The translations under genes and the position numbers were made by a program. From assembly GCF_001997385.1 (NCBI RefSeq), contig NZ_CP019633.1, positions 1,650,001-1,682,000 of the forward strand: a stretch of 32,000 nt of DNA, read 5' to 3'. The notes below the pieces were generated by a model, which worked only from the letters and a program-made list of their open reading frames with translations, was not told the DNA's origin and ran no database searches. Shown in pieces: positions 2,431 to 26,458 of the stretch. Position 1 is the stretch's first letter, and each line of letters opens with the position of its first letter. This DNA is from Sedimentisphaera cyanobacteriorum (GTDB lineage: Bacteria; Planctomycetota; Phycisphaerae; Sedimentisphaerales; Sedimentisphaeraceae).

Positions 2431-3039
2431 ATGAACGAAACAATCAGAGACAGAATGCTCTACGGGGCATCAGCTTACAGCCCTCCTTATCAGCGTACTC
2501 GGGAAATGACTCTCGACGAGATGCTTCTGGATAACCGAATTCTGTTTATGATAGGCGAAATCAATTACAGGATGTCCACAGAAGTGATTATGAAGCTTCT
2601 GCACCTTGAGAATAATAAGCCCGGGGCGGAGATAAGCATGTATATAAATTCTCCCGGAGGCAGCGTGGATGATACGATGGCAATCTACGATACAATGCGA
2701 TTTATCAGCTCGCCTGTTTCAACATACTGCATCGGAAGGGCTCAGTCCGGAGGGGCTATAATACTTGCCTCCGGAGCGGAAGGTAAACGCTTCGCACTGC
2801 CTCACGCAAAAGTGATGATCCATCAGCCTTGGGGCGGCGTAACAGGCCAGGCAGAAGACGTGCATATTCAGGCCGAAGAGATTATTAGAAGCAAAAATAT
2901 AATCAACGGAATCCTCGCTAAGCATACGAATAAAACCGTTGAGCAGCTTCAGGAAGACACCGAAAGAGATAAGTATATGACGGCAGAAGAAGCGAAGAAA
3001 TACGGCATTATCGACGACGTTCTTGAAACGCCGGAATGA
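2431..3039 (+). CDS. clpP: ATP-dependent Clp protease proteolytic subunit, divergent paralog with N-terminal extension
   Basis: 202 aa. ClpP motifs are present: YINSPGGSV, catalytic Ser context GRAQSGG, His in MIHQP, Asp in ERDKYMTAEEAKKYGIIDDV. Confidence 0.9.
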   Translation: MNETIRDRMLYGASAYSPPYQRTREMTLDEMLLDNRILFMIGEINYRMSTEVIMKLLHLENNKPGAEISMYINSPGGSVDDTMAIYDTMRFISSPVSTYCIGRAQSGGAIILASGAEGKRFALPHAKVMIHQPWGGVTGQAEDVHIQAEEIIRSKNIINGILAKHTNKTVEQLQEDTERDKYMTAEEAKKYGIIDDVLETPE

Positions 3040-3087
3040 TAGTCAGTTATCTTGATTAGATTGCAAATAACTTTATAAGGAAAAATA

Positions 3088-3693
3088 ATGGTATCGAATC
3101 AGTTAATACCGATGGTAATAGAAAAGGAAGGACGCGGAGAAAGAGCTTACGACATCTATTCGCGTCTTTTGAAAGACCGTATCGTTTTTCTCGGCGGCGG
3201 AGTTGACGACAACATAGCAAATTTGGTGATAGCTCAGCTGCTCTTTTTAAGCAATGAAGACAGCGAGGCAGATATCCATTTCTACATAAACTCTCCCGGC
3301 GGTTCAGTAAGCGCGGGGCTGGCTGTTTATGATACAATGCGCTTTCTCCGGTGCGACGTTGCAACATACTGCATCGGGCAGGCAGCCAGTATGGGGGCGG
3401 TTCTCTTCGCCGGCGGAACAGAAGGCAAGAGATGTATGCTGCCAAACAGCAGGATACTGCTGCATCAGCCTCTGATATCCGGCGTAATGCAGGGGCCAGC
3501 AACCGACCTTGAGATTGAGGCGAAGGAGATTATCCGTCTTCGCAAGAGACTATACAGCATCCTCTCATTCCACACAGGAAAAAGCGAGGAGCAGGTTGTA
3601 AAAGACTGCGACAGAAACCTTTGGCTTGAAGCTCAGGAATCAATAGATTACGGGCTTGCTGATAAGATCCTCGAAAAAGAGCCTGCAAAATAA
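3088..3693 (+). CDS. clpP: ATP-dependent Clp protease proteolytic subunit, canonical paralog
   Basis: 201 aa. It shows [38 protein letters not shown], catalytic Ser in [13 protein letters not shown], and [20 protein letters not shown]. Confidence 0.93.
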
Positions 3694-10317: not shown

Positions 10318-11861
<1,544 letters not shown>

Positions 11862-12351: not shown

Positions 12352-13374
12352 ATGGCAACAAAGGTTGCGATCAATGGTTTCGGTCGAATCGGTAGAGCTG
12401 TAGCTCGTGTTATCCTCCAGAACAAAGGCCTCGGCCTTGATCTGGTAGCTATCAACGATCTTGCAGACCCAAAAGCTCTTGCTCACCTGTTCAAGTATGA
12501 CACAGTTATGGGCAAATGGGACGGGGAAGTATCCGTAAGCGGAGACGGTCTTGTTGTAAACGGCAAGGACATTAAGGTTACTGCTGTTAAGAGTCCTGCA
12601 GAGCTTCCTTGGAAAGAGATGGGCGTTGATATCGTTCTCGAGTCAACCGGTATCTTCCGTACAAAAGAAGGCCCGAAAGGCGGCTACGGCGATCACATCA
12701 AGGCGGGCGCTAAGAAAGTTGTTCTTTCTGTTCCGGCAAAGGATGAGATCGACGGCACAATCGTTCTGGGCGTAAACGACTCAGACCTGACAAAAGACAT
12801 CGACTGCGCATCAAACGCAAGCTGCACAACAAACTGCCTTGCTCCGGTAGCGAAGATTCTCAACGACAGCTTCGGCATCAAGAGAGGCCTTATGACAACT
12901 ATCCACGCATACACCAACGACCAGAACGTTGGCGATATGATCCACAAGGACCTCCGCAGGGCACGTGCTGCTGCTGACAACATCATCCCGACCACCACAG
13001 GAGCTGCTGCTGCAGTAGGGAAGGTTATTCCTGACCTTAACGGCAAGCTCAACGGCGGTGCTATGCGTGTTCCGGTAATTGACGGCTCATGCGTTGACCT
13101 CACAGCAGAGCTGGGCAAAGACGTTACTGCTGAAGACGTGAATGCTGCTGTTAAAGCGGCCGCTGAAGGCCCGATGAAGGGCATTATGTCTTACTGCGAG
13201 GACCCGATCGTATCAAGCGATATCGTTGGCGATCCGCACTCAAGCATCTTCGATGCACTCAGCACGATGGTTATCGACGGGAATATGGTTAAGGTAATCT
13301 CATGGTACGACAACGAATGGGGCTACTCAAACCGCGCAGCAGACCTTATGAGCAAAATGGCTGCTATGCTGTAA
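12352..13374 (+). CDS. gap: Type I glyceraldehyde-3-phosphate dehydrogenase
   Basis: 340 aa. It shows INGFGRIGR, the active-site motif [12 protein letters not shown], and [11 protein letters not shown]. The SD is taggag. Confidence 0.95.
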
Positions 13375-13759: not shown

Positions 13760-15115
13760 ATGCAGAACATTATATCATTAGAACTGATAAGTGCCACATC
13801 AGAAAATGGATTTTCTTTAGATGAATTGGTTTTCAGGACCAAAGAGTTATTTGAAACTGAGGCTATGGCAGGTTTTGTAAGCCTGATTCTTCAGTTGATT
13901 GATGAGCGAATATGTATGAACATTGTTCAAGGTAAATCGGATAATACCGGCCAATCATGCTGCTGCAATGAGCGGTTTGAATATCATGACAGGTCTCTTC
14001 GCCAGTTCAGGACTTCTGTCGGCACAGTCAAGATTAGCTGGCGTCGCTTAAAGTGCGTTAAATGCGGCAAGACAATAACTCCTTTGAGAGATTTTTTAGG
14101 CCTTGCACCCTACCAGTCAAAGACATTGGAGTTGGAAAAGCTGGTTACAGAAATTGTAAGCGAACAAAGTTATCGCCGAAGCAGCACTCATCTTGAATCT
14201 ATCGGCAGCATACCTGTTCCAAAGAGCACTGCCCATCGCTGGGTTGTACAGACCGAGTGCGATCAGATTGATACCGGCACAGATACATTCAGTCTTCTTT
14301 TTGCTGACGGCACCGGCTTTAAGCGTCGGCCCGATAAGGACAAACGCATAAGTAATCGCGGTGAGCTCAGAGTTGCCTTAGGAGTCACCAGAAGTAGTTC
14401 TGTGGTGCCTTTAGGGGCATTCAGCGGTAAAAGCTGGGACGAGATATCCTCGCTGGTCAAGGGCGAACGTAAGAACAAAGAGCTTGTTGCCGATATGCTT
14501 GTAAGCGAGGGCGAAACAGGTCTGGTTAAGAGTCTGGCCAAACTTTGCAATGATAGCCAAAGAAGCCATTGGCACCTGGTTCGGGATCTGGATTATACGA
14601 TGTGGAAGGATGATGCCGGCAAACTTGAACGTAAGCAAAAGCAGAAAGAATTGAATGCCGTAATTGGTATTGAAATTCCCGAGGAAGATTTTGAAAAGGT
14701 CTGTGATGATGACAAGAAAGATTTGCAAGATGCTGTCAATAGTGCCGAAAGTGATCTTCATAAGCTGATAGGCAAACTGCTGGAGAAGGAATATAAAATA
14801 GCAGCCGATTACCTGAACCGTTCAGCTAAAAATATGTTCAGCTATGCTCGCCGCTGGCTGGAGACAGGTATTGTAACTCCGCGGGTTTCCAGCATGATAG
14901 AACGGATGATGCGAGAGCTTGGTCGACGCCTTAAACGCATCGCATTTGGCTGGAGCGAAGAAGGAGCGGCAAAGATGGCCAGAATTATCATTAAAAGATT
15001 TACTTCAGAAAATCAATGGGAAAAATACTGGCACGAAAAACTGAGGTTATTGGACAATGTAATGCTTGCTCTAAAGACTATAAAAGTACAGAACCCACAA
15101 ACTTTGGGACGTTAA
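13760..15115 (+). CDS. IS transposase (ISLre2/UPF0236-like; family assignment tentative)
   Basis: 451 aa bounded by the IS inverted repeats. It has an N-terminal CxxC motif (LKCVKCGK), LLFADGTGFKRR and QRSHWHLVRDL segments resembling the DDE and downstream H-containing motifs of ISLre2/UPF0236-type transposases, and a basic C-terminus. No alignment was run. Confidence 0.65.
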   Translation: MQNIISLELISATSENGFSLDELVFRTKELFETEAMAGFVSLILQLIDERICMNIVQGKSDNTGQSCCCNERFEYHDRSLRQFRTSVGTVKISWRRLKCVKCGKTITPLRDFLGLAPYQSKTLELEKLVTEIVSEQSYRRSSTHLESIGSIPVPKSTAHRWVVQTECDQIDTGTDTFSLLFADGTGFKRRPDKDKRISNRGELRVALGVTRSSSVVPLGAFSGKSWDEISSLVKGERKNKELVADMLVSEGETGLVKSLAKLCNDSQRSHWHLVRDLDYTMWKDDAGKLERKQKQKELNAVIGIEIPEEDFEKVCDDDKKDLQDAVNSAESDLHKLIGKLLEKEYKIAADYLNRSAKNMFSYARRWLETGIVTPRVSSMIERMMRELGRRLKRIAFGWSEEGAAKMARIIIKRFTSENQWEKYWHEKLRLLDNVMLALKTIKVQNPQTLGR

Positions 15116-20549: not shown

Positions 20550-20577
20550 TTGATTTTTTGTCTTATAAGCGTATAAT
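20550..20577 (+). promoter_or_regulatory. Candidate sigma-70 promoter for the ATPase/RloB-like pair (TTGATT-N16-TATAAT)
   Basis: -35 at 20550-20555 and a perfect -10 at 20572-20577, about 40 nt upstream of the ATG at 20617 (SD aaggga). Confidence 0.4.
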
Positions 20578-20616
20578 ATCAAAGCTAAATAAGAAATTTT
20601 AAGCGAAAGGGACAAA

Positions 20617-21930
20617 ATGCTGCTGAATTTTTCCTTAAAAAACTGGATGTCATTTCGTGATGAAGCAAATTTTTCCATGATTGCTTCAAGAGAAAAACAG
20701 CACAGAGAAAGGCTTGCAAAACTTGAGACAGTAAAGAAAAATGTGCTTCCAATTTCTGCTGTTTACGGCGGGAATGCCTCGGGCAAGACGAACTTTTTCA
20801 AGGCCTTCCGATTTCTCAAGAGATTTATTGTGGAAGGCACAAGACCAGAAACATCAATCCCTGTTCAAAATTTTTGCTTAGACCAAGAGTCTGCGGAAAG
20901 TCCAAGCTGGTTTAATATTGCTGTTTTTTCTGAAGGTAAAGTTTATGAGCTGGAATTTTCTGTTAATTCAGAAAAGGTTTTAACGGAAAAACTAACCCAG
21001 ATAAAGCCCTCATCTGAGAAGCTTCTATATGAAAGAATAAACGGCGAGCTTAAGCTGGGCAGTTCTCTCTCAGCAAATCAGCATCTAAAATTTGCTTTTG
21101 AAGGGACAAGAGAAAACCAGCTTTTTCTTACCAATTCAGTTTCTCAGAGAATAGAAATTTTCAAGCCTGTTTACGACTGGTTCAAGGATAAACTTATGCT
21201 TATCGCACCTGACACAAGATTCGGATCCTTTGAGCAGATGATGAATGAGGAAAGCCAAATTTATGACAGCATAAACGAGATTATTTCCGGCCTTGACACA
21301 GGCATCGACCATATAGGCGGGGAAACAGTGGCTGTAGATAATCTGCCGCTGCCGGAGGGCAAAAAAGATAATCTTCTCGAGGAGATACCTGAAGGAAAGG
21401 CTGCGAAAATTATTATTGCAGGACTCGAGGACGAGAGGATTATTGTAACAAAAAACAAGGGCAGGCTGTCTGCCAAAAAGCTCGTTACATACCACAAAAA
21501 CAAGAACGGCACAGAGCATAAATTTGAACTCAATCAGGAATCAGACGGTTCTAAAAGGGCTGTAGAGCTTTTGCCTGCATTCCTTGATCTCTCAAGCAGA
21601 AAATCAGCAAGGGTTTACATTATCGATGAGCTCAACAGGAGCCTTCATTCACTGCTTTCAAGGAATATGATTTCTTTTTTCCTTTCGGCCTTTGGAAAGG
21701 ATTCAAGATCTCAGCTTTTGTTTACAACGCACGATTTAACTCTTTTCGACCAAAGCATATTCAGGCGTGATGAAATGTGGCTTACTGAGAGGAATAAAGA
21801 AGGCGTTTCTAAGCTTTATTCAATAAGCGATTTTGAGGATGTCAGATACGACAAGGATATCAGAAAGAGCTATCTGCAGGGGCGTATGGGCGGCGTGCCG
21901 AATATAGGTCCTTTGGTTTCTGCGCGATGA
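20617..21930 (+). CDS. ABC-type AAA_21/AAA_15-like ATPase (AbiLi / RloA / AriA-like)
   Basis: 437 aa. It has Walker A GGNASGKT near the N-terminus, the ABC-signature-like QESDGSKR, Walker B VYIIDELNRSLH, H-loop FTTHD, and the family-typical C-terminal YLQGRMGGVPNI. Confidence 0.85.
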   Translation: MLLNFSLKNWMSFRDEANFSMIASREKQHRERLAKLETVKKNVLPISAVYGGNASGKTNFFKAFRFLKRFIVEGTRPETSIPVQNFCLDQESAESPSWFNIAVFSEGKVYELEFSVNSEKVLTEKLTQIKPSSEKLLYERINGELKLGSSLSANQHLKFAFEGTRENQLFLTNSVSQRIEIFKPVYDWFKDKLMLIAPDTRFGSFEQMMNEESQIYDSINEIISGLDTGIDHIGGETVAVDNLPLPEGKKDNLLEEIPEGKAAKIIIAGLEDERIIVTKNKGRLSAKKLVTYHKNKNGTEHKFELNQESDGSKRAVELLPAFLDLSSRKSARVYIIDELNRSLHSLLSRNMISFFLSAFGKDSRSQLLFTTHDLTLFDQSIFRRDEMWLTERNKEGVSKLYSISDFEDVRYDKDIRKSYLQGRMGGVPNIGPLVSAR

Positions 21931-21943
21931 AAGGGGAAAGTCT

Positions 21944-22539
21944 ATGGCTGGTAAACTCTCAAGGCCAACCAAAAGAAGAAGATACAAAAAGCTTTTCCTG
22001 CTGTCGGTTGAAGGCCAGAAAACTGAGCCGCAGTATTTCAGTTTATTTAACAGCGATGCCTCAGCTATTTCAATACGCTCAATCAAAGCGAAAAGCAAAA
22101 GTGCGCCTCAGAAAGTTTTGAAACGAATGAAAGACGCTCTGAAAGAAGAAAACTTAAAAAAACTGACGAGGCGTGGTTAGTAGTAGATAAGGACAATTGG
22201 CAAGATGCCCAGCTGCTTTCGCTTTTAAAATGGGCAGATCAAAGACAAAATTATGGGCTCGCTGTGAGCAATCCCAAATTTGAATATTGGCTGCTGCTTC
22301 ATTTCGAAGACGGAAAAAAAGCTTCCGATTCTAAAACCTGCACCAAAAGGCTGAAGAAATATCTTGTTGATGGAAAAAATATCAACCCAGCAAAAATTAA
22401 CCGCAAAATGATATTGAAAGCTGTAGAAAGGGCTAAAAGACAAAACAGCAATCCTGCCGGCTGGCCAAAACAGAAGGGCACAACTGTTTACCGATTGATT
22501 GAAAATATATTTAAGGCTGAAAAAGATTATAAAGCTTAG
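21944..22539 (+). pseudogene. RloB-like (Toprim-like) protein gene split by a 1-nt frameshift in an A7 run
   Basis: The N-terminal ORF (21944-22180) carries the RloB-type FLLSVEGQKTEPQYF motif. The C-terminal frame, open from 22051, reads TDEAWLVVDKDNWQDAQLLSLLKWADQRQNYGLAVSNPKFEYWLLLHFE and ends at 22539. Adding one A to the run at 22156-22162 joins the two frames into one ~198-aa protein (...ENLKKTDEAWLVVD...). Confidence 0.75.
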
Positions 22540-22581: not shown

Positions 22582-24621
22582 TCATTCTCTCTGATTTATA
22601 TTGAGCGGGTGGAGCTGGCCTTGGGATTTTGCAAACATACTGCACTCAGGGAGGACTTCGAGAAATTTCTTTCCGTAGAATTTTTTCATCACTCTGCTGT
22701 CTAAAATCACTACAGAGCCGGAATCGGTTTTTCTGCGTATCAGCCTTCCGAAGCCCTGTTTGAAGCGTATTATCGCAGAGGGCAGCTGAAAGCTTATGAA
22801 TGGATTCTGGCCGTTAGCTTTGATCTGTTCGATTTTTCCCTGCGTGAGCGGGTGGTTCGGGACGGAAAATGGAAGCCTCATTATCGCAACGCATTTGAGT
22901 GCATCGCCGGGCAGGTCAACCCCCTGCCAAAAGCTCTCAGTGCCGAGGAGAATGCCGCTGTCGCTGTTTTTGAAATTTTCAACGAGCCTCGTGCGCGAAA
23001 TCCCCTTCTGCTGCATAAATATTTCTCTGCTGTTTTCGAATGCCCAGTATTCAAGCTCCTCTGCAAAATTTTTCAGCATATAATAGCTTGTAAAGAGTAC
23101 AAGCGTTCCGCCGCCTGCATTTGCAATCCAGCCTTTGAGCGCTTGGGCAGCTGCGGGCACGAAATCCGGGCTTGAGGGCTCTGGCAGGTCTGCCTCCGCT
23201 ACCACCTTCACATTTTTCTTATAGTCGAAAAAACTCCCGAGCATAAGCGAATCGTATTCTTCCAGCCCAACGTTTCCGGCGAAGAACGAGAATCCCTTTT
23301 TTCCAGATGAGCAGCTCAGCGTAGCGCTTGTAAGGGCAACAGACTCGAATTTGTCAAACAAACACTCCTTGAGGTCTTTGCCTGCATTTATCGGGGCGCT
23401 TCTGAGGCTGTATCTTGGGAACTGCTTCTTTCCGCCTTTTTCAATCCAGTAAATATGGCGATTTTCGTCGTCAGCGGCTTTGGGCTGCTGAACGAATGAG
23501 CTTATATCACTCTCAAACGCGCTGAGCCTCTCAACTGCTCTTCTCAGCTCCTCGGCAGTATCTGATTTCTTTTCTTCCTCGCTGAATTTTTCTCTGATAT
23601 TAGAGAGAGCGAGCCTTAGCTCTTTGAGCTCGACGGAGAGGTTGTCGGTTAAATCTTCAGGTCCGCATTTTCCATTGTTTTCCCGGCAGGTATGTTCGTA
23701 ATAGGATTCCACCTGCTTAAAGAAAACCTCGCAGGCCTTTCTGGAATTTTTCAGCTTTGTTTTGAGCTTCTCATCATCGAATTGGGCAAGAAGGCCTTTT
23801 CGTTTTTTACTGTCATAAAGCCCGCGGAGAGTAAAATCTACTGCATTGTTTGATATATTGATTCCGAAGTGGTCTTCAGCAGCTTTCTGGAGGTTGTGAG
23901 CTTCGTCTATTACAACGGCCTCGTATGAAGGGAGAATGCTTGCGCCTCTGCTTCTGAGCATAAGATCGCTGAGCAGGAGAGAATGATTCAAAACGATCAG
24001 CTCACACTGCTCGAGCTCTTTTCTTGCCTTTGAGTAGAAACACTCTTTCCTGTGCGGGCATTTCCTGCCCTTGCAGTTGCCGTGTTCGCTTTTTACCGCG
24101 TCCCAAACCGAGGGAGACGGATTAAAGGGAATCGTGCTGAGCGAGCCGTCATTGGTTGTCTCCGCCCACTGCTTCAGCTCGGCAAGCTCGCCGGGAGGGG
24201 CATCGAAAAGGGTTTTTTTGTTTTCGAGGGCATAATGCAGCCTTCGCTTGCAGATATAGTTGTTTCTTCCCTTTGCGATCCCTGCCTTGAATTCAAAATC
24301 CACCGCTCTTGCTGTGAACGGTATATCCTGATTTATCAGCTGTTCCTGAAGGTTGATTGTGTATGTGCTGATAACAGCCTTCACCCCGCTTTTTACCGCA
24401 TATTTCACGGCAGGGACGATATAAGCGAGGCTCTTGCCGGTACCTGTGCCGGCTTCGATAACTGTATGCCTGCCCTGCTCAAAACACTGCTCCAGCTTTA
24501 GAGCCATCTCCTTCTGACCTGGGCGCTGTTCATATCCGGGCAGTAAACGGGCTATCCTTCCGCTGTCGCTGAAAAAGGATTCGAGGTCTAAGTCTGGTTC
24601 TGTTTCAAAAGGAACTTTCAA
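22582..24621 (-). CDS. dinG: DinG/XPD-family ATP-dependent DNA helicase with Fe-S domain
   Basis: 679 aa. It has Walker A EAGTGTGKS, DEAH box VIDEAHNL, four Cys in the Fe-S insertion (NYICKRR...HGNCKGRKCPHRKECFY), and C-terminal FWQGVDLPG and QGFGRLIRRKTDSG. The start is TTG at 24621, directly after an in-frame stop, with SD ggtga 5 nt upstream. Confidence 0.9.
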   Translation of the reverse strand: MKVPFETEPDLDLESFFSDSGRIARLLPGYEQRPGQKEMALKLEQCFEQGRHTVIEAGTGTGKSLAYIVPAVKYAVKSGVKAVISTYTINLQEQLINQDIPFTARAVDFEFKAGIAKGRNNYICKRRLHYALENKKTLFDAPPGELAELKQWAETTNDGSLSTIPFNPSPSVWDAVKSEHGNCKGRKCPHRKECFYSKARKELEQCELIVLNHSLLLSDLMLRSRGASILPSYEAVVIDEAHNLQKAAEDHFGINISNNAVDFTLRGLYDSKKRKGLLAQFDDEKLKTKLKNSRKACEVFFKQVESYYEHTCRENNGKCGPEDLTDNLSVELKELRLALSNIREKFSEEEKKSDTAEELRRAVERLSAFESDISSFVQQPKAADDENRHIYWIEKGGKKQFPRYSLRSAPINAGKDLKECLFDKFESVALTSATLSCSSGKKGFSFFAGNVGLEEYDSLMLGSFFDYKKNVKVVAEADLPEPSSPDFVPAAAQALKGWIANAGGGTLVLFTSYYMLKNFAEELEYWAFENSREIFMQQKGISRTRLVENFKNSDSGILLGTESFWQGVDLPGDALKCVAIMRLPFSVPNHPLTQGKIEQIKANGQNPFISFQLPSAIIRFKQGFGRLIRRKTDSGSVVILDSRVMKKFYGKKFLEVLPECSMFAKSQGQLHPLNINQRE

Positions 24622-24644
24622 TTATTTCACCAACTTTGCGCAAG

Positions 24645-24676
24645 AAAAAAGGCTGGTATCAGAAGAAACCAGCCTT
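24645..24676 (-). terminator. Intrinsic terminator on the minus strand, 24 nt upstream of the dinG start
   Basis: Minus-strand read: aaggctggt-ttcttctgat-accagcc followed by TTTTTT, the first two T of which close the stem against the leading aa (9-bp stem, 10-nt loop). There is no T-run in the plus orientation. Confidence 0.55.
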
Positions 24677-24829
24677 CGTCGAGACAATTCAAAAATAAGA
24701 TAAAAATACTAGATATATAAACCTGTCTCAACTACTAAAACTTTATTTTATTTGGAAAAAAGAATTACACGCATCTCTGCGTAAACCCAAACTTTATAGC
24801 ACTGTTAATGAACTATCAAATCTGATGTC

Positions 24830-24858
24830 ATATTAGCATTTCTCAAGGTCGGTGTCAA
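24830..24858 (-). promoter_or_regulatory. Consensus-like sigma-70 promoter (TTGACA-N17-TAATAT) on the minus strand with an A/T UP-like tract
   Basis: Minus-strand read: ttgacaccgaccttgagaaatgctaatat. The -35 is at 24858-24853 and the -10 at 24835-24830. It is preceded by aaaaaaaaattaaaaaatttttatttttt. Confidence 0.45.
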
Positions 24859-24931
24859 ACAAAAAATAAAAATTTTTTAATTTTTTTTTACAACGCTCCT
24901 CATCGCCAGAAACAATCGGTCATTTCGCTAT

Positions 24932-26458
24932 TCAGAACATCTTATCAAGCCTTCTGTAACTCACGGCCTCACCAATATGTTCAGGTCTTATTTCCTCGCT
25001 TCCTGCAAGGTCTGCAATGGTTCTTGCGAGTTTGCATATCTTATCGTGCGCCCTTGCACTTAGGGAAAGGTCTTTCATTGCGCTTTTGAGCATAATCTCT
25101 GATTTTGGCTCGAGCTCGCAGAAAACTTCTATCTCCCTGTGAGACATGCCCGCATTAACCCGCCTTGAATCGCCTCTGAAGCGGATGTTCTGTACTTTCC
25201 TTGCGCAGTTAACCTGCTCTCTCATATTTGCTGAGCTCTGCCCCTTGGCCTTGTTCCTGAGTGCACGATAATCCACAGCAGGCACTTCGATCTGTATATC
25301 GATTCTGTCCAAAAGCGGCCCGGAGAGCTTTGAGAGATACTTCTCAATCTGGGCGGGCGTGCAGCGGCATTCTTTCTGGGTGGAGCCGTAATACCCGCAG
25401 GGGCACGGATTGGCCGAAGCTATAAGCATAAAATCTGCGGGGAATGTAACCGTGGCCTGCGCTCGGGCTATGGTAACCTGACTGTCCTCCAAGGGCTGGC
25501 GAATCGTTTCCAGCACAGTGCGTGAGAATTCGGGAAACTCATCGAGAAACAGAATTCCGTGATGAGCGAGGCTCAGCTCTCCCGGCCTTGGATGGGCAGA
25601 CCCTCCAATAAGAGCGGGCGCACTTGCGGAATGGTGCGGACTGCGAAAAGGCCTCGTTGCAATCAGAGCCTGCTGCCTCTCGAGAAGGCCTACAGATGAA
25701 TAGATTCGAGTTGTCTCAAGGGATTCTTCAAGGGAGAGCTCTGGGAGAATGCTTGCTACGCGTTTGCTGAGCATAGTTTTCCCGGAGCCCGGAGGCCCCA
25801 TCATCATCACGTTATGCCCGCCGGCAGCAGCTATCGTAAGGGCACGCTTAACCGTTTCCTGCCCCTTCACGTCTTCGAAATCAATGTCGTATTTTCGTTT
25901 TATCTCAAAGAGCCTGTCTATATCTGTGTATGTCGGCTCTATGGGCAGATTCCCGGAGAGAAACCCAACTGTCTCGGTCAGCGAGCCAACTCCGAAGATA
26001 TCTATTCCCTGCACAACTGCTGCTTCAGGGGCGTTCTCTATCGGCACTATCATCCTCTCAAAGCCAGCTGCCTTTGCGCTCATCGCCAAACTCAAAACGC
26101 CGTTGACGGGACGAACCCTGCCGTCGAGGGCGAGTTCGCCTACCATTATCTCATTTTTAAGCCCTTCCAGCTGCACTGCTCCGCTTGCGCTTAGAATCCC
26201 AACTCCAATCGAAAGGTCGAAGGCTGGGCCTTCCTTCTTGAGGTCTGCGGGTGCGAGATTAACTGTAATCTGTTCAAAAGGATACTTGAATCCGCTGTTG
26301 ATTAAAGCGCTTCTAACCCTCTCGCAGCTCTCCTTAATAGCTGCATCCGGAAGCCCCACAATAAGAAGGCGGGTATCATCTCCGCTTATGTGCACCTCCA
26401 CCTCGCAGATATGCCCTTCAATCCCCGAAAGTGTAAGGCTGTTCAGTCTGGCAAGCAT
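24932..26458 (-). CDS. comM: YifB/ComM-family Mg-chelatase-like ATPase
   Basis: 508 aa. It has an N-terminal Lon-protease-like domain (LDGRVRPVNGVLSLA), Walker A MMGPPGSGKTM, Walker B ILFLDEFPEF, and CPCGYYGSTQKECRCTPAQIEKYLSKLSGPLLDRIDI. Confidence 0.92.
   Translation of the reverse strand: MLARLNSLTLSGIEGHICEVEVHISGDDTRLLIVGLPDAAIKESCERVRSALINSGFKYPFEQITVNLAPADLKKEGPAFDLSIGVGILSASGAVQLEGLKNEIMVGELALDGRVRPVNGVLSLAMSAKAAGFERMIVPIENAPEAAVVQGIDIFGVGSLTETVGFLSGNLPIEPTYTDIDRLFEIKRKYDIDFEDVKGQETVKRALTIAAAGGHNVMMMGPPGSGKTMLSKRVASILPELSLEESLETTRIYSSVGLLERQQALIATRPFRSPHHSASAPALIGGSAHPRPGELSLAHHGILFLDEFPEFSRTVLETIRQPLEDSQVTIARAQATVTFPADFMLIASANPCPCGYYGSTQKECRCTPAQIEKYLSKLSGPLLDRIDIQIEVPAVDYRALRNKAKGQSSANMREQVNCARKVQNIRFRGDSRRVNAGMSHREIEVFCELEPKSEIMLKSAMKDLSLSARAHDKICKLARTIADLAGSEEIRPEHIGEAVSYRRLDKMF

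Follow-up and report, generated by a model that had tools for sequence, protein, structure and literature searches.

Does a two-gene cassette at positions 20,550 to 22,539 of a 32,000-nt stretch of the Sedimentisphaera cyanobacteriorum chromosome encode an anti-phage system, and can this system still work? The stretch (contig NZ_CP019633.1, positions 1,650,001 to 1,682,000) is called the window in what follows. An original prediction, made from the letters of the window, had described the cassette as an accessory module composed of an ATP-binding cassette (ABC) type ATPase, here gene A, and of an RloB-like, Toprim-like partner, here gene B, with an architecture recalling the defence systems AbiL and PARIS. 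The answer that we favour, with more confidence than doubt, is that the cassette is a self-contained anti-phage module of the AbiL type (AbiLi/AbiLii, i.e. RloA/RloB), which has two genes and was acquired horizontally, and in which gene B has been broken by a one-base deletion. The cassette is located between a MoxR-DUF58-BatA operon and a convergent gene for a DinG-like helicase, and its elements are distributed as follows:

20550..20577, + strand: sigma-70-like promoter match TTGATT-16-TATAAT, 10 of 12 consensus positions (a consensus match only)
20617..21930, + strand: gene A, intact, ATG start, 437 aa, ABC ATPase of the AbiLi/RloA type (Rad50/SMC-like, AAA_15/21), identified from its open reading frame (ORF), Pfam, PADLOC and predicted fold
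21944..22180, + strand: 5' part of gene B, RloB/AbiLii residues 1-72 followed by six out-of-frame codons and TAG; 78-aa ORF in frame 2, stop at 22178-22180
22156..22162, + strand: A7 tract in TTA AAA AAA CTG, site of the one-base deletion; formally an A_AAA_AAA -1 slippery heptamer
22163..22539, + strand: 3' part of gene B, RloB residues 73-198 in the -1 frame (frame 1), with DEAWLVVDKDNW (D82-x-D84) and NPKFEYWLLLHFE, stop at 22537-22539

The two genes of the cassette

Gene A encodes a Rad50/SMC-like ABC ATPase and is undamaged. Its coordinates, its length and its motifs (GGNASGKT, ESDGSKR, IIDELNRSLH, TTHD and YLQGRMGGVP) are those originally described. Pfam recognizes AAA_21 (E-value 1.8e-28), and the top PADLOC model is AbiLi (PDLC02335, 1.9e-77, residues 1-432), AriA coming second (5e-26). 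Walker A (G51-T58, GGNASGKT), the signature (E308-G311, ESDG), Walker B (I336-D337-E338) and the H-loop (H372) are invariant in 32 homologues, and every invariant column of their alignment is kept in gene A, including within residues 1-13, where M1, N9, W10, S12 and F13 are concerned. The annotated length of the ATPase differs between GenBank (AQQ09529.1, 437 aa, start at 20617) and RefSeq (WP_227806744.1, 417 aa, start at 20677); since residues 1-13 are conserved in the 32 homologues, the 437-aa start is the right one and the RefSeq call is too short. The AlphaFold2 (AF2) model has a predicted local distance difference test (pLDDT) score of 78.9, and is matched in Foldseek by Rad50 (6.6e-10), PtuA (1.1e-9) and OLD (6p74, 1.5e-8), with SMC also within 1e-8 to 1e-10. 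Between about residues 195 and 305, the prediction consists mainly of beta strands.

Gene B starts with an ATG at 21944, 13 nt past the stop of gene A and on the same + strand, as had been noted. The two stretches on which its RloB assignment was founded are both present, but in different frames, so that the gene is not one ORF: VEGQKTEPQYF belongs to the 5' frame, whose opening reads as RloB-like (...LLSVEGQKTEPQYF...), whereas the -1 frame carries ...TDEAWLVVDKDNW...AVSNPKFEYWLLLHFE... The original prediction hinted at this break only by speaking of a "repaired" protein. The 78-aa ORF includes the VEG...TE motif (E23, E28) without the DxD motif; within the 3' part, only the final 91 codons are preceded by a start codon (GTG at 22264), the DxD segment having none of its own. 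The frameshift is already in the public record, where the halves are listed separately as AQQ09530.1 / WP_161488128.1 ("RloB domain-containing protein", 78 aa) and AQQ09531.1 (91 aa, "RloB-like protein" in UniRef).

Profile, alignment and fold results for gene B were obtained with a 198-aa translation repaired by one base. It matches Pfam RloB over the whole profile (5.5e-36, positions 1-195 of 195) and the PADLOC model AbiLii (1.5e-26), and it aligns through the frameshift point without interruption. None of the residues that are invariant in 52 homologues is missing; they are E23, G24, E28, D75, W78, D82, D84, W86, P111, F113, E114, W116 and others. The AF2 model is confident (pLDDT 80.7, predicted template modelling score 0.79). 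In its N-terminal half, strands 16-22, 42-47, 76-82 and 104-110 alternate with helices; E23 follows strand 1 and D82-x-D84 closes strand 3, which is the arrangement of the Toprim signature: a Glu after strand 1 and a DxD after strand 3 within an alternating core. Direct links to known structures were nevertheless not recovered: Foldseek gave no significant match of the model in the PDB (best E 0.015, unrelated folds), sequence and profile searches of the PDB gave no match, and hhalign gave a probability of 0.3% against P2 Old. HHpred is reported to tie RloB to OLD-type Toprim (PMC10440598). The acidic residues announced for a Toprim-like effector are present (E23, D82-x-D84 and E114), as are the motif and the strand order, but the fold match is missing; the "Toprim-like" label of gene B rests on the motif, on the predicted order of secondary structures and on the literature. 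A Pfam scan of 52 members of the gene B family, with E up to 10, gave only faint matches to DUF4276 and none to DUF4435.

A search of BFVD with the RloB model returned as only significant match A0A8S5LTA7 (Myoviridae sp. ct25F5; E 1.8e-7, template modelling score 0.68, 18% identity), another RloB-like phage protein. As this match is phage-encoded, RloB proteins are also phage-borne.

By its sequence, the cassette is of AbiL/RloAB type in every respect except the integrity of the effector ORF: gene A is whole, and gene B is split into ORFs of 78 and 91 aa. The AbiL/PARIS-like reading of its architecture is supported, both PADLOC models placing the pair in AbiL. Since gene B has no match to DUF4435/AriB, the pair is not PARIS itself. 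Concerning the checks that had been proposed, the PADLOC and Pfam searches returned AbiLi, AbiLii, AAA_21 and a full-length RloB, with DUF4435 not matched, and folding of the repaired protein gave a confident model in which the conserved acidic residues are present.

Accessory nature and distribution

The comparisons of sequences indicate that the cassette is accessory and horizontally acquired. Its G+C content is 40.7%, compared to 47.3% for the remainder of the window, and the G+C content at third codon positions (GC3) of genes A and B (0.416 and 0.392) is the lowest of the 21 window genes, the others ranging from 0.44 to 0.59. The AT-richness announced for the 5' end is found again, with 20 G+C in the 60 nt at 20617-20676. 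In S. salicampi (L006), DinG is 92% identical and the ComM-DinG pair is kept, and the cassette is missing: neither AbiL nor a Bat operon is found beside DinG. ComM-DinG (DinG region at 22582-26458 of the window) is flanked here by ClpC and by AbiL plus the Bat operon, and in S. salicampi by NikR/ZnuABC and by a glycoside hydrolase plus PriA. Because ComM-DinG is all that the two Sedimentisphaera species share at this locus, with different genes on both sides, the cassette stands at a synteny break.

In a search of 5.8 billion proteins with gene A, nothing more than 56% identical was found apart from the copy of the genome itself. The nearest homologue, at 56%, belongs to another phylum: it comes from Candidatus Tritonobacter, is accompanied by an intact RloB of 197 aa and is inserted between pglX and pglZ of a bacteriophage exclusion (BREX) operon. 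A homologous pair is carried by a plasmid of the cyanobacterium Geminocystis (50% and 49% identity), and others are present in 19 contigs of IMG/VR, which are predicted to be viral. With a pattern scan, the same subfamily was found in at least 500 genomes of Chlamydiota, Desulfobacterota, Latescibacterota, Chlorobiota, Pseudomonadota, Verrucomicrobiota, Planctomycetota and other phyla. It occurs also in metagenome-assembled genomes of Planctomycetota, so that at the sequence level the present copy has predecessors in this phylum; the AbiL-type pair is neither special to planctomycetes nor new, and its fragments are already named RloB in the public record. The accessory status proposed originally is thus borne out by the absence beside DinG of S. 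salicampi, the identity gap, the low G+C and the plasmid, viral and BREX homologues.

In Candidatus Tritonobacter lacicola (L001-L005 and L010), the AbiL pair was observed inside a type 1 BREX operon on at least 24 contigs, a case of defence nested in defence.

The genes next to the pair were examined at the 80 loci of a sample anchored on gene A (described below). The nearest upstream and downstream ORFs (136 in total) are heterogeneous, and include integrases, PrimPol, ResIII helicases and other defence ATPases. Since neighbours vary and no partner recurs, the AbiL pair appears to travel as a self-contained unit. A fixed partner system, or a general link to restriction-modification (R-M) or BREX loci, was rejected on the same grounds. 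The order is constant where the pair is complete: gene A then gene B, adjacent and co-oriented, in 59/72 genomic, 55/55 metagenomic and 18/18 viral-contig loci, all 18 evaluable viral-contig copies being intact pairs. In 42 of 53 relatives the stop and start codons at the junction overlap by 1 nt, which suggests coupled translation there; the junction of the present pair is a 13-nt gap.

The frameshift in gene B

The two halves of gene B meet at the A7 tract. The frame is restored either by an extra A (A8, reading K-K-T) or by a T after the tract (reading K-K-S), and both fit the family consensus LKK[ST]DEAW. More than 1800 homologues of gene B are single ORFs of about 200 aa; at the homologous site of 140 intact genes, A-runs are at most 7 nt long and in frame. 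Two further frameshifted copies were found in the family (L017 and L042); their breaks lie at other places, which shows that recoding at this site is not conserved. We incline to the view that the frameshift is a real and recent inactivating mutation. If real, the lesion should be young, because neither gene shows any other decay. As sequenced, only the 78-aa fragment without DxD can be made, the DxD segment having no start codon, so the system should be off. With its effector gene frameshifted, the AbiL system is probably inactive as it stands, and the lesion would leave an orphan ATPase in this genome.

Loss of RloB beside intact ATPases

Is this state found elsewhere in the family? We considered the best 80 gene A matches on genomic contigs (L010-L089), of which 72 could be evaluated from their downstream sequence, and the best 80 gene B matches on metagenomic contigs (L090-L169), of which 55 could be evaluated from their upstream sequence:

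Anchored on intact gene A, genomic contigs, 72 loci: gene B intact in 59, degraded or absent in 13 (frameshifted 2, remnant only 6, absent 5)
Anchored on intact gene B, metagenomic contigs, 55 loci: gene A intact in 55, degraded or absent in 0

Loss is thus asymmetric (13/72 vs 0/55, Fisher p = 5e-4), in a comparison that opposes two different collections of 80 best-scoring hits each. Beside an intact ATPase, RloB is frameshifted in L017 and L042, truncated in L022, L043, L049, L059, L062 and L083, and replaced in L019, L054, L070, L081 and L087; where it is absent, its place is taken by an Insertion Sequence transposase, a HipA-like gene, another ATPase or other genes. Gene A is intact in all 20 loci of the sample anchored on it that have no full-length RloB match. 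Its pairwise ratio of nonsynonymous to synonymous substitution rates is 0.05-0.18 between copies that both lack gene B, and 0.04-0.20 between intact pairs.

One of the two frameshifted copies, at L042:7329-7935, is an RloB pseudogene with two lesions: WLVVGKD in place of WLVVDKD, by which the first Asp of DxD is lost, and one extra base within the NPKFE codons.

These observations lead us to suggest, tentatively and with more doubt than confidence, that the AbiL subfamily decays one-sidedly, RloB being repeatedly frameshifted, truncated or replaced and the ATPase being kept under strong purifying selection. The pattern agrees with toxicity of the effector, and AbiLii of F. nucleatum has been found toxic to E. 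coli (PMC3985639); the ATPase either could not go first or stays useful, the window copy being a further instance. If true, one-sided decay would mean either that AbiL is an addiction (toxin-antitoxin-like) module whose ATPase cannot be lost first, or that the AbiLi ATPase has a function of its own after loss of the effector; the Sedimentisphaera copy would then be a freshly caught example.

Alternative explanations

Several points weigh against the reading of a recently broken defence module and against its extension to the family. The asymmetry is drawn from the two collections just described, and the losses are not dated. In the sole published test, AbiLi of F. nucleatum failed to neutralise AbiLii (PMC3985639). 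The cassette is bordered by no convincing direct or inverted repeats, and no integrase marks an insertion. Finally, the lesion is a single-base deletion in a homopolymer, in an assembly that is probably long-read, and could thus be a sequencing or assembly error. In that case the strain would have A8 (or A7 then T), an intact gene B and a functional AbiL. Among the errors that remain in long-read assemblies, loss of a single base in a homopolymer is the most frequent, and what is missing here is one base at a 7-nt run, in a record formed of one 2.95-Mb contig; moreover both halves of gene B are otherwise undamaged, with their invariant residues kept, beside an intact gene A. However, long ORFs of the window contain five more 7-nt homopolymers without any loss of frame, and the 32 kb show no further gene that is visibly broken; the losses of gene B beside an intact gene A in 13/72 loci are mostly deletions or replacements, which base-calling errors cannot produce. 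We consider an error rather unlikely, while giving it serious weight. Could the tract instead be a switch? Phase variation by slipped-strand mispairing, or a low level of full-length RloB obtained by -1 ribosomal or transcriptional slippage, would keep scarce an effector whose family is toxic (PMC3985639). TTA AAA AAA C is formally an X_XXY_YYZ heptamer in the zero frame, which stops 5 codons later, and a -1 slip yields exactly the family consensus (...LKKTDEAWLVVDKD..., with ENLKKTDEAWLVVDK as the K72/T73 junction peptide). Yet A7 is short for efficient slippage; no stimulatory RNA structure was found downstream (z = +1.48, 190 of 200 shuffles folding at least as well), no Shine-Dalgarno-like element is evident on reading the sequence just upstream of the tract, and the single ORFs of the homologues, the short A-runs of the 140 intact genes and the different positions of the other breaks all argue against a switch, which we regard as highly improbable. 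Programmed frameshifting as the principal explanation was rejected for the lack of downstream RNA structure and because the break is not conserved in relatives.

Another possibility is that the pair does not form a defence system by itself, being either a selfish module of toxin-antitoxin type or an accessory of restriction or BREX loci stranded without its partner. RloA and RloB indeed owe their names to their linkage with restriction loci (PMC13064643, PMC10440598), a BREX operon harbours the closest homologue between pglX and pglZ, and one-sided loss is what an addiction module is expected to show. On the other hand, the immediate neighbours in 80 genomes are heterogeneous, without recurrent partner, and lactococcal AbiL alone gives phage resistance, according to Deng et al. 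1999 as cited in PMC13064643. Toxin-antitoxin-like behaviour and defence are besides compatible, PARIS having both (PMC13064643). This explanation seems to us very improbable indeed, and a self-contained AbiL-type module broken in gene B remains our preferred reading.

Comparison with known systems

The pair resembles most closely AbiL of Lactococcus lactis, with which it shares a two-gene operon on one strand, the first gene encoding an AAA_15/21 ABC ATPase and the second a protein of the RloB family; for each gene the best PADLOC match is an AbiL model, and the Pfam RloB match is full length. It differs by belonging to a distant subfamily present in Planctomycetota, Chlamydiota, Desulfobacterota, Latescibacterota and others, with no Lactococcus record among the plasmid matches listed. 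The present copy is also chromosomal, and has a frameshifted effector gene and a 13-nt junction gap. RloA and RloB of the type I R-M loci of Campylobacter jejuni belong to the same families, and a plasmid homologue of gene A (H18) is annotated RloA, but the present pair is not in an hsd locus, being flanked by the MoxR/DUF58/BatA operon and by DinG, ComM and ClpC.

PARIS, composed of the ABC ATPase AriA and the DUF4435/Toprim nuclease AriB, follows the same logic of a sensor ATPase with a small nuclease-like effector, and gene A, with its Rad50-like fold, matches the AriA model. In the AAA15/21 tree of PMC11464382, AbiL falls into one group with PARIS, and it has been placed among the systems that combine an ABC ATPase with TOPRIM (PMC11464382, PMC13064643). 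Three differences separate the pair from PARIS, whose target is tRNA: DUF4435/AriB is not matched by gene B even with E up to 10 across the 52 family members; the match of gene A to AriA is 50 orders of magnitude weaker than to AbiLi; and AriA has a helical coiled-coil extension (PMC11464382) where residues of about 195 to 305 of gene A are predicted to be mostly beta strand. The ATPase head of gene A also resembles Thermus scotoductus OLD (6p74) and PtuA of Septu. In OLD nucleases and in GajA of Gabija, however, a single fused chain carries both ATPase and Toprim, and Septu has an HNH partner; neither Foldseek nor hhalign recovered a sequence or fold link from gene B to the OLD Toprim.

Proposed functioning and implications

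By analogy with the family and with PARIS (PMC11464382, PMC13064643), the intact system may function as follows: an oligomer of the ATPase would bind, restrain and monitor the RloB effector; on sensing a phage cue, it would release or activate this effector, presumably a Toprim-like metal-dependent nuclease using E23 and D82-x-D84; the nuclease would then cut nucleic acid and growth of the infected cell would stop, i.e. abortive infection. In the present genome, a recent lesion would have switched the system off and left the ATPase orphan, a state which recurs in the family, probably since the effector is toxic and its loss tolerated.

Two corrections of the annotation are suggested: L21SP3_01336 and L21SP3_01337 are the halves of one frameshifted RloB gene, and the start of the ATPase is that of the 437-aa protein. 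The locus is to be scored as an AbiL system, probably inactive. A subfamily which is very conserved (members about 55% identical to this copy in at least 500 genomes), passes from phylum to phylum and shows one-sided loss of its effector would offer a convenient entry to tests of AbiL as a PARIS-like system, with the ATPase as sensor and antitoxin and RloB as toxic nuclease. The window cassette is in itself unsurprising, and only the family-wide one-sided loss of the effector might merit more work.

Other features of the window

The BatA-like gene is separated from gene A by a spacer of 97 nt with 27% G+C, which houses the promoter-like site at 20550-20577. The near-consensus promoter announced for the cassette is thus found as a sequence match; the scanned region contains 8 promoter-like sites, where 3.5 are expected. 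The position originally given, wedged between a housekeeping operon and a convergent helicase gene, corresponds to MoxR-DUF58-BatA and DinG. The remainder of the window is of housekeeping type: two ClpP genes, DnaK, a 16S rRNA gene, GAPDH, a porin, MoxR-DUF58-BatA, DinG, ComM and ClpC. The ORFs annotated and scanned in the window yielded no hsd, methylase or other restriction gene, and no tRNA gene is present in it.

Three other loci of the window may be mentioned. The 16S rRNA gene is complete (10318-11855, Rfam 1457 bits) and stands alone, without 23S, 5S or tRNA after it, the next gene being GAPDH at 12352, so that the rRNA genes seem to be unlinked. Between GAPDH and the porin gene, a 451-aa ORF (13760-15115; G+C 0.444, GC3 0.440) has DUF6431 as its sole match (2.5e-7), and is perhaps another case of foreign or mobile DNA in the window, beside the cassette. 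Lastly, at 1690-2202 and 2431-3693, a gene for a sigma factor of the extracytoplasmic function (ECF) type, of low G+C (0.394), adjoins two tandem ClpP paralogues.

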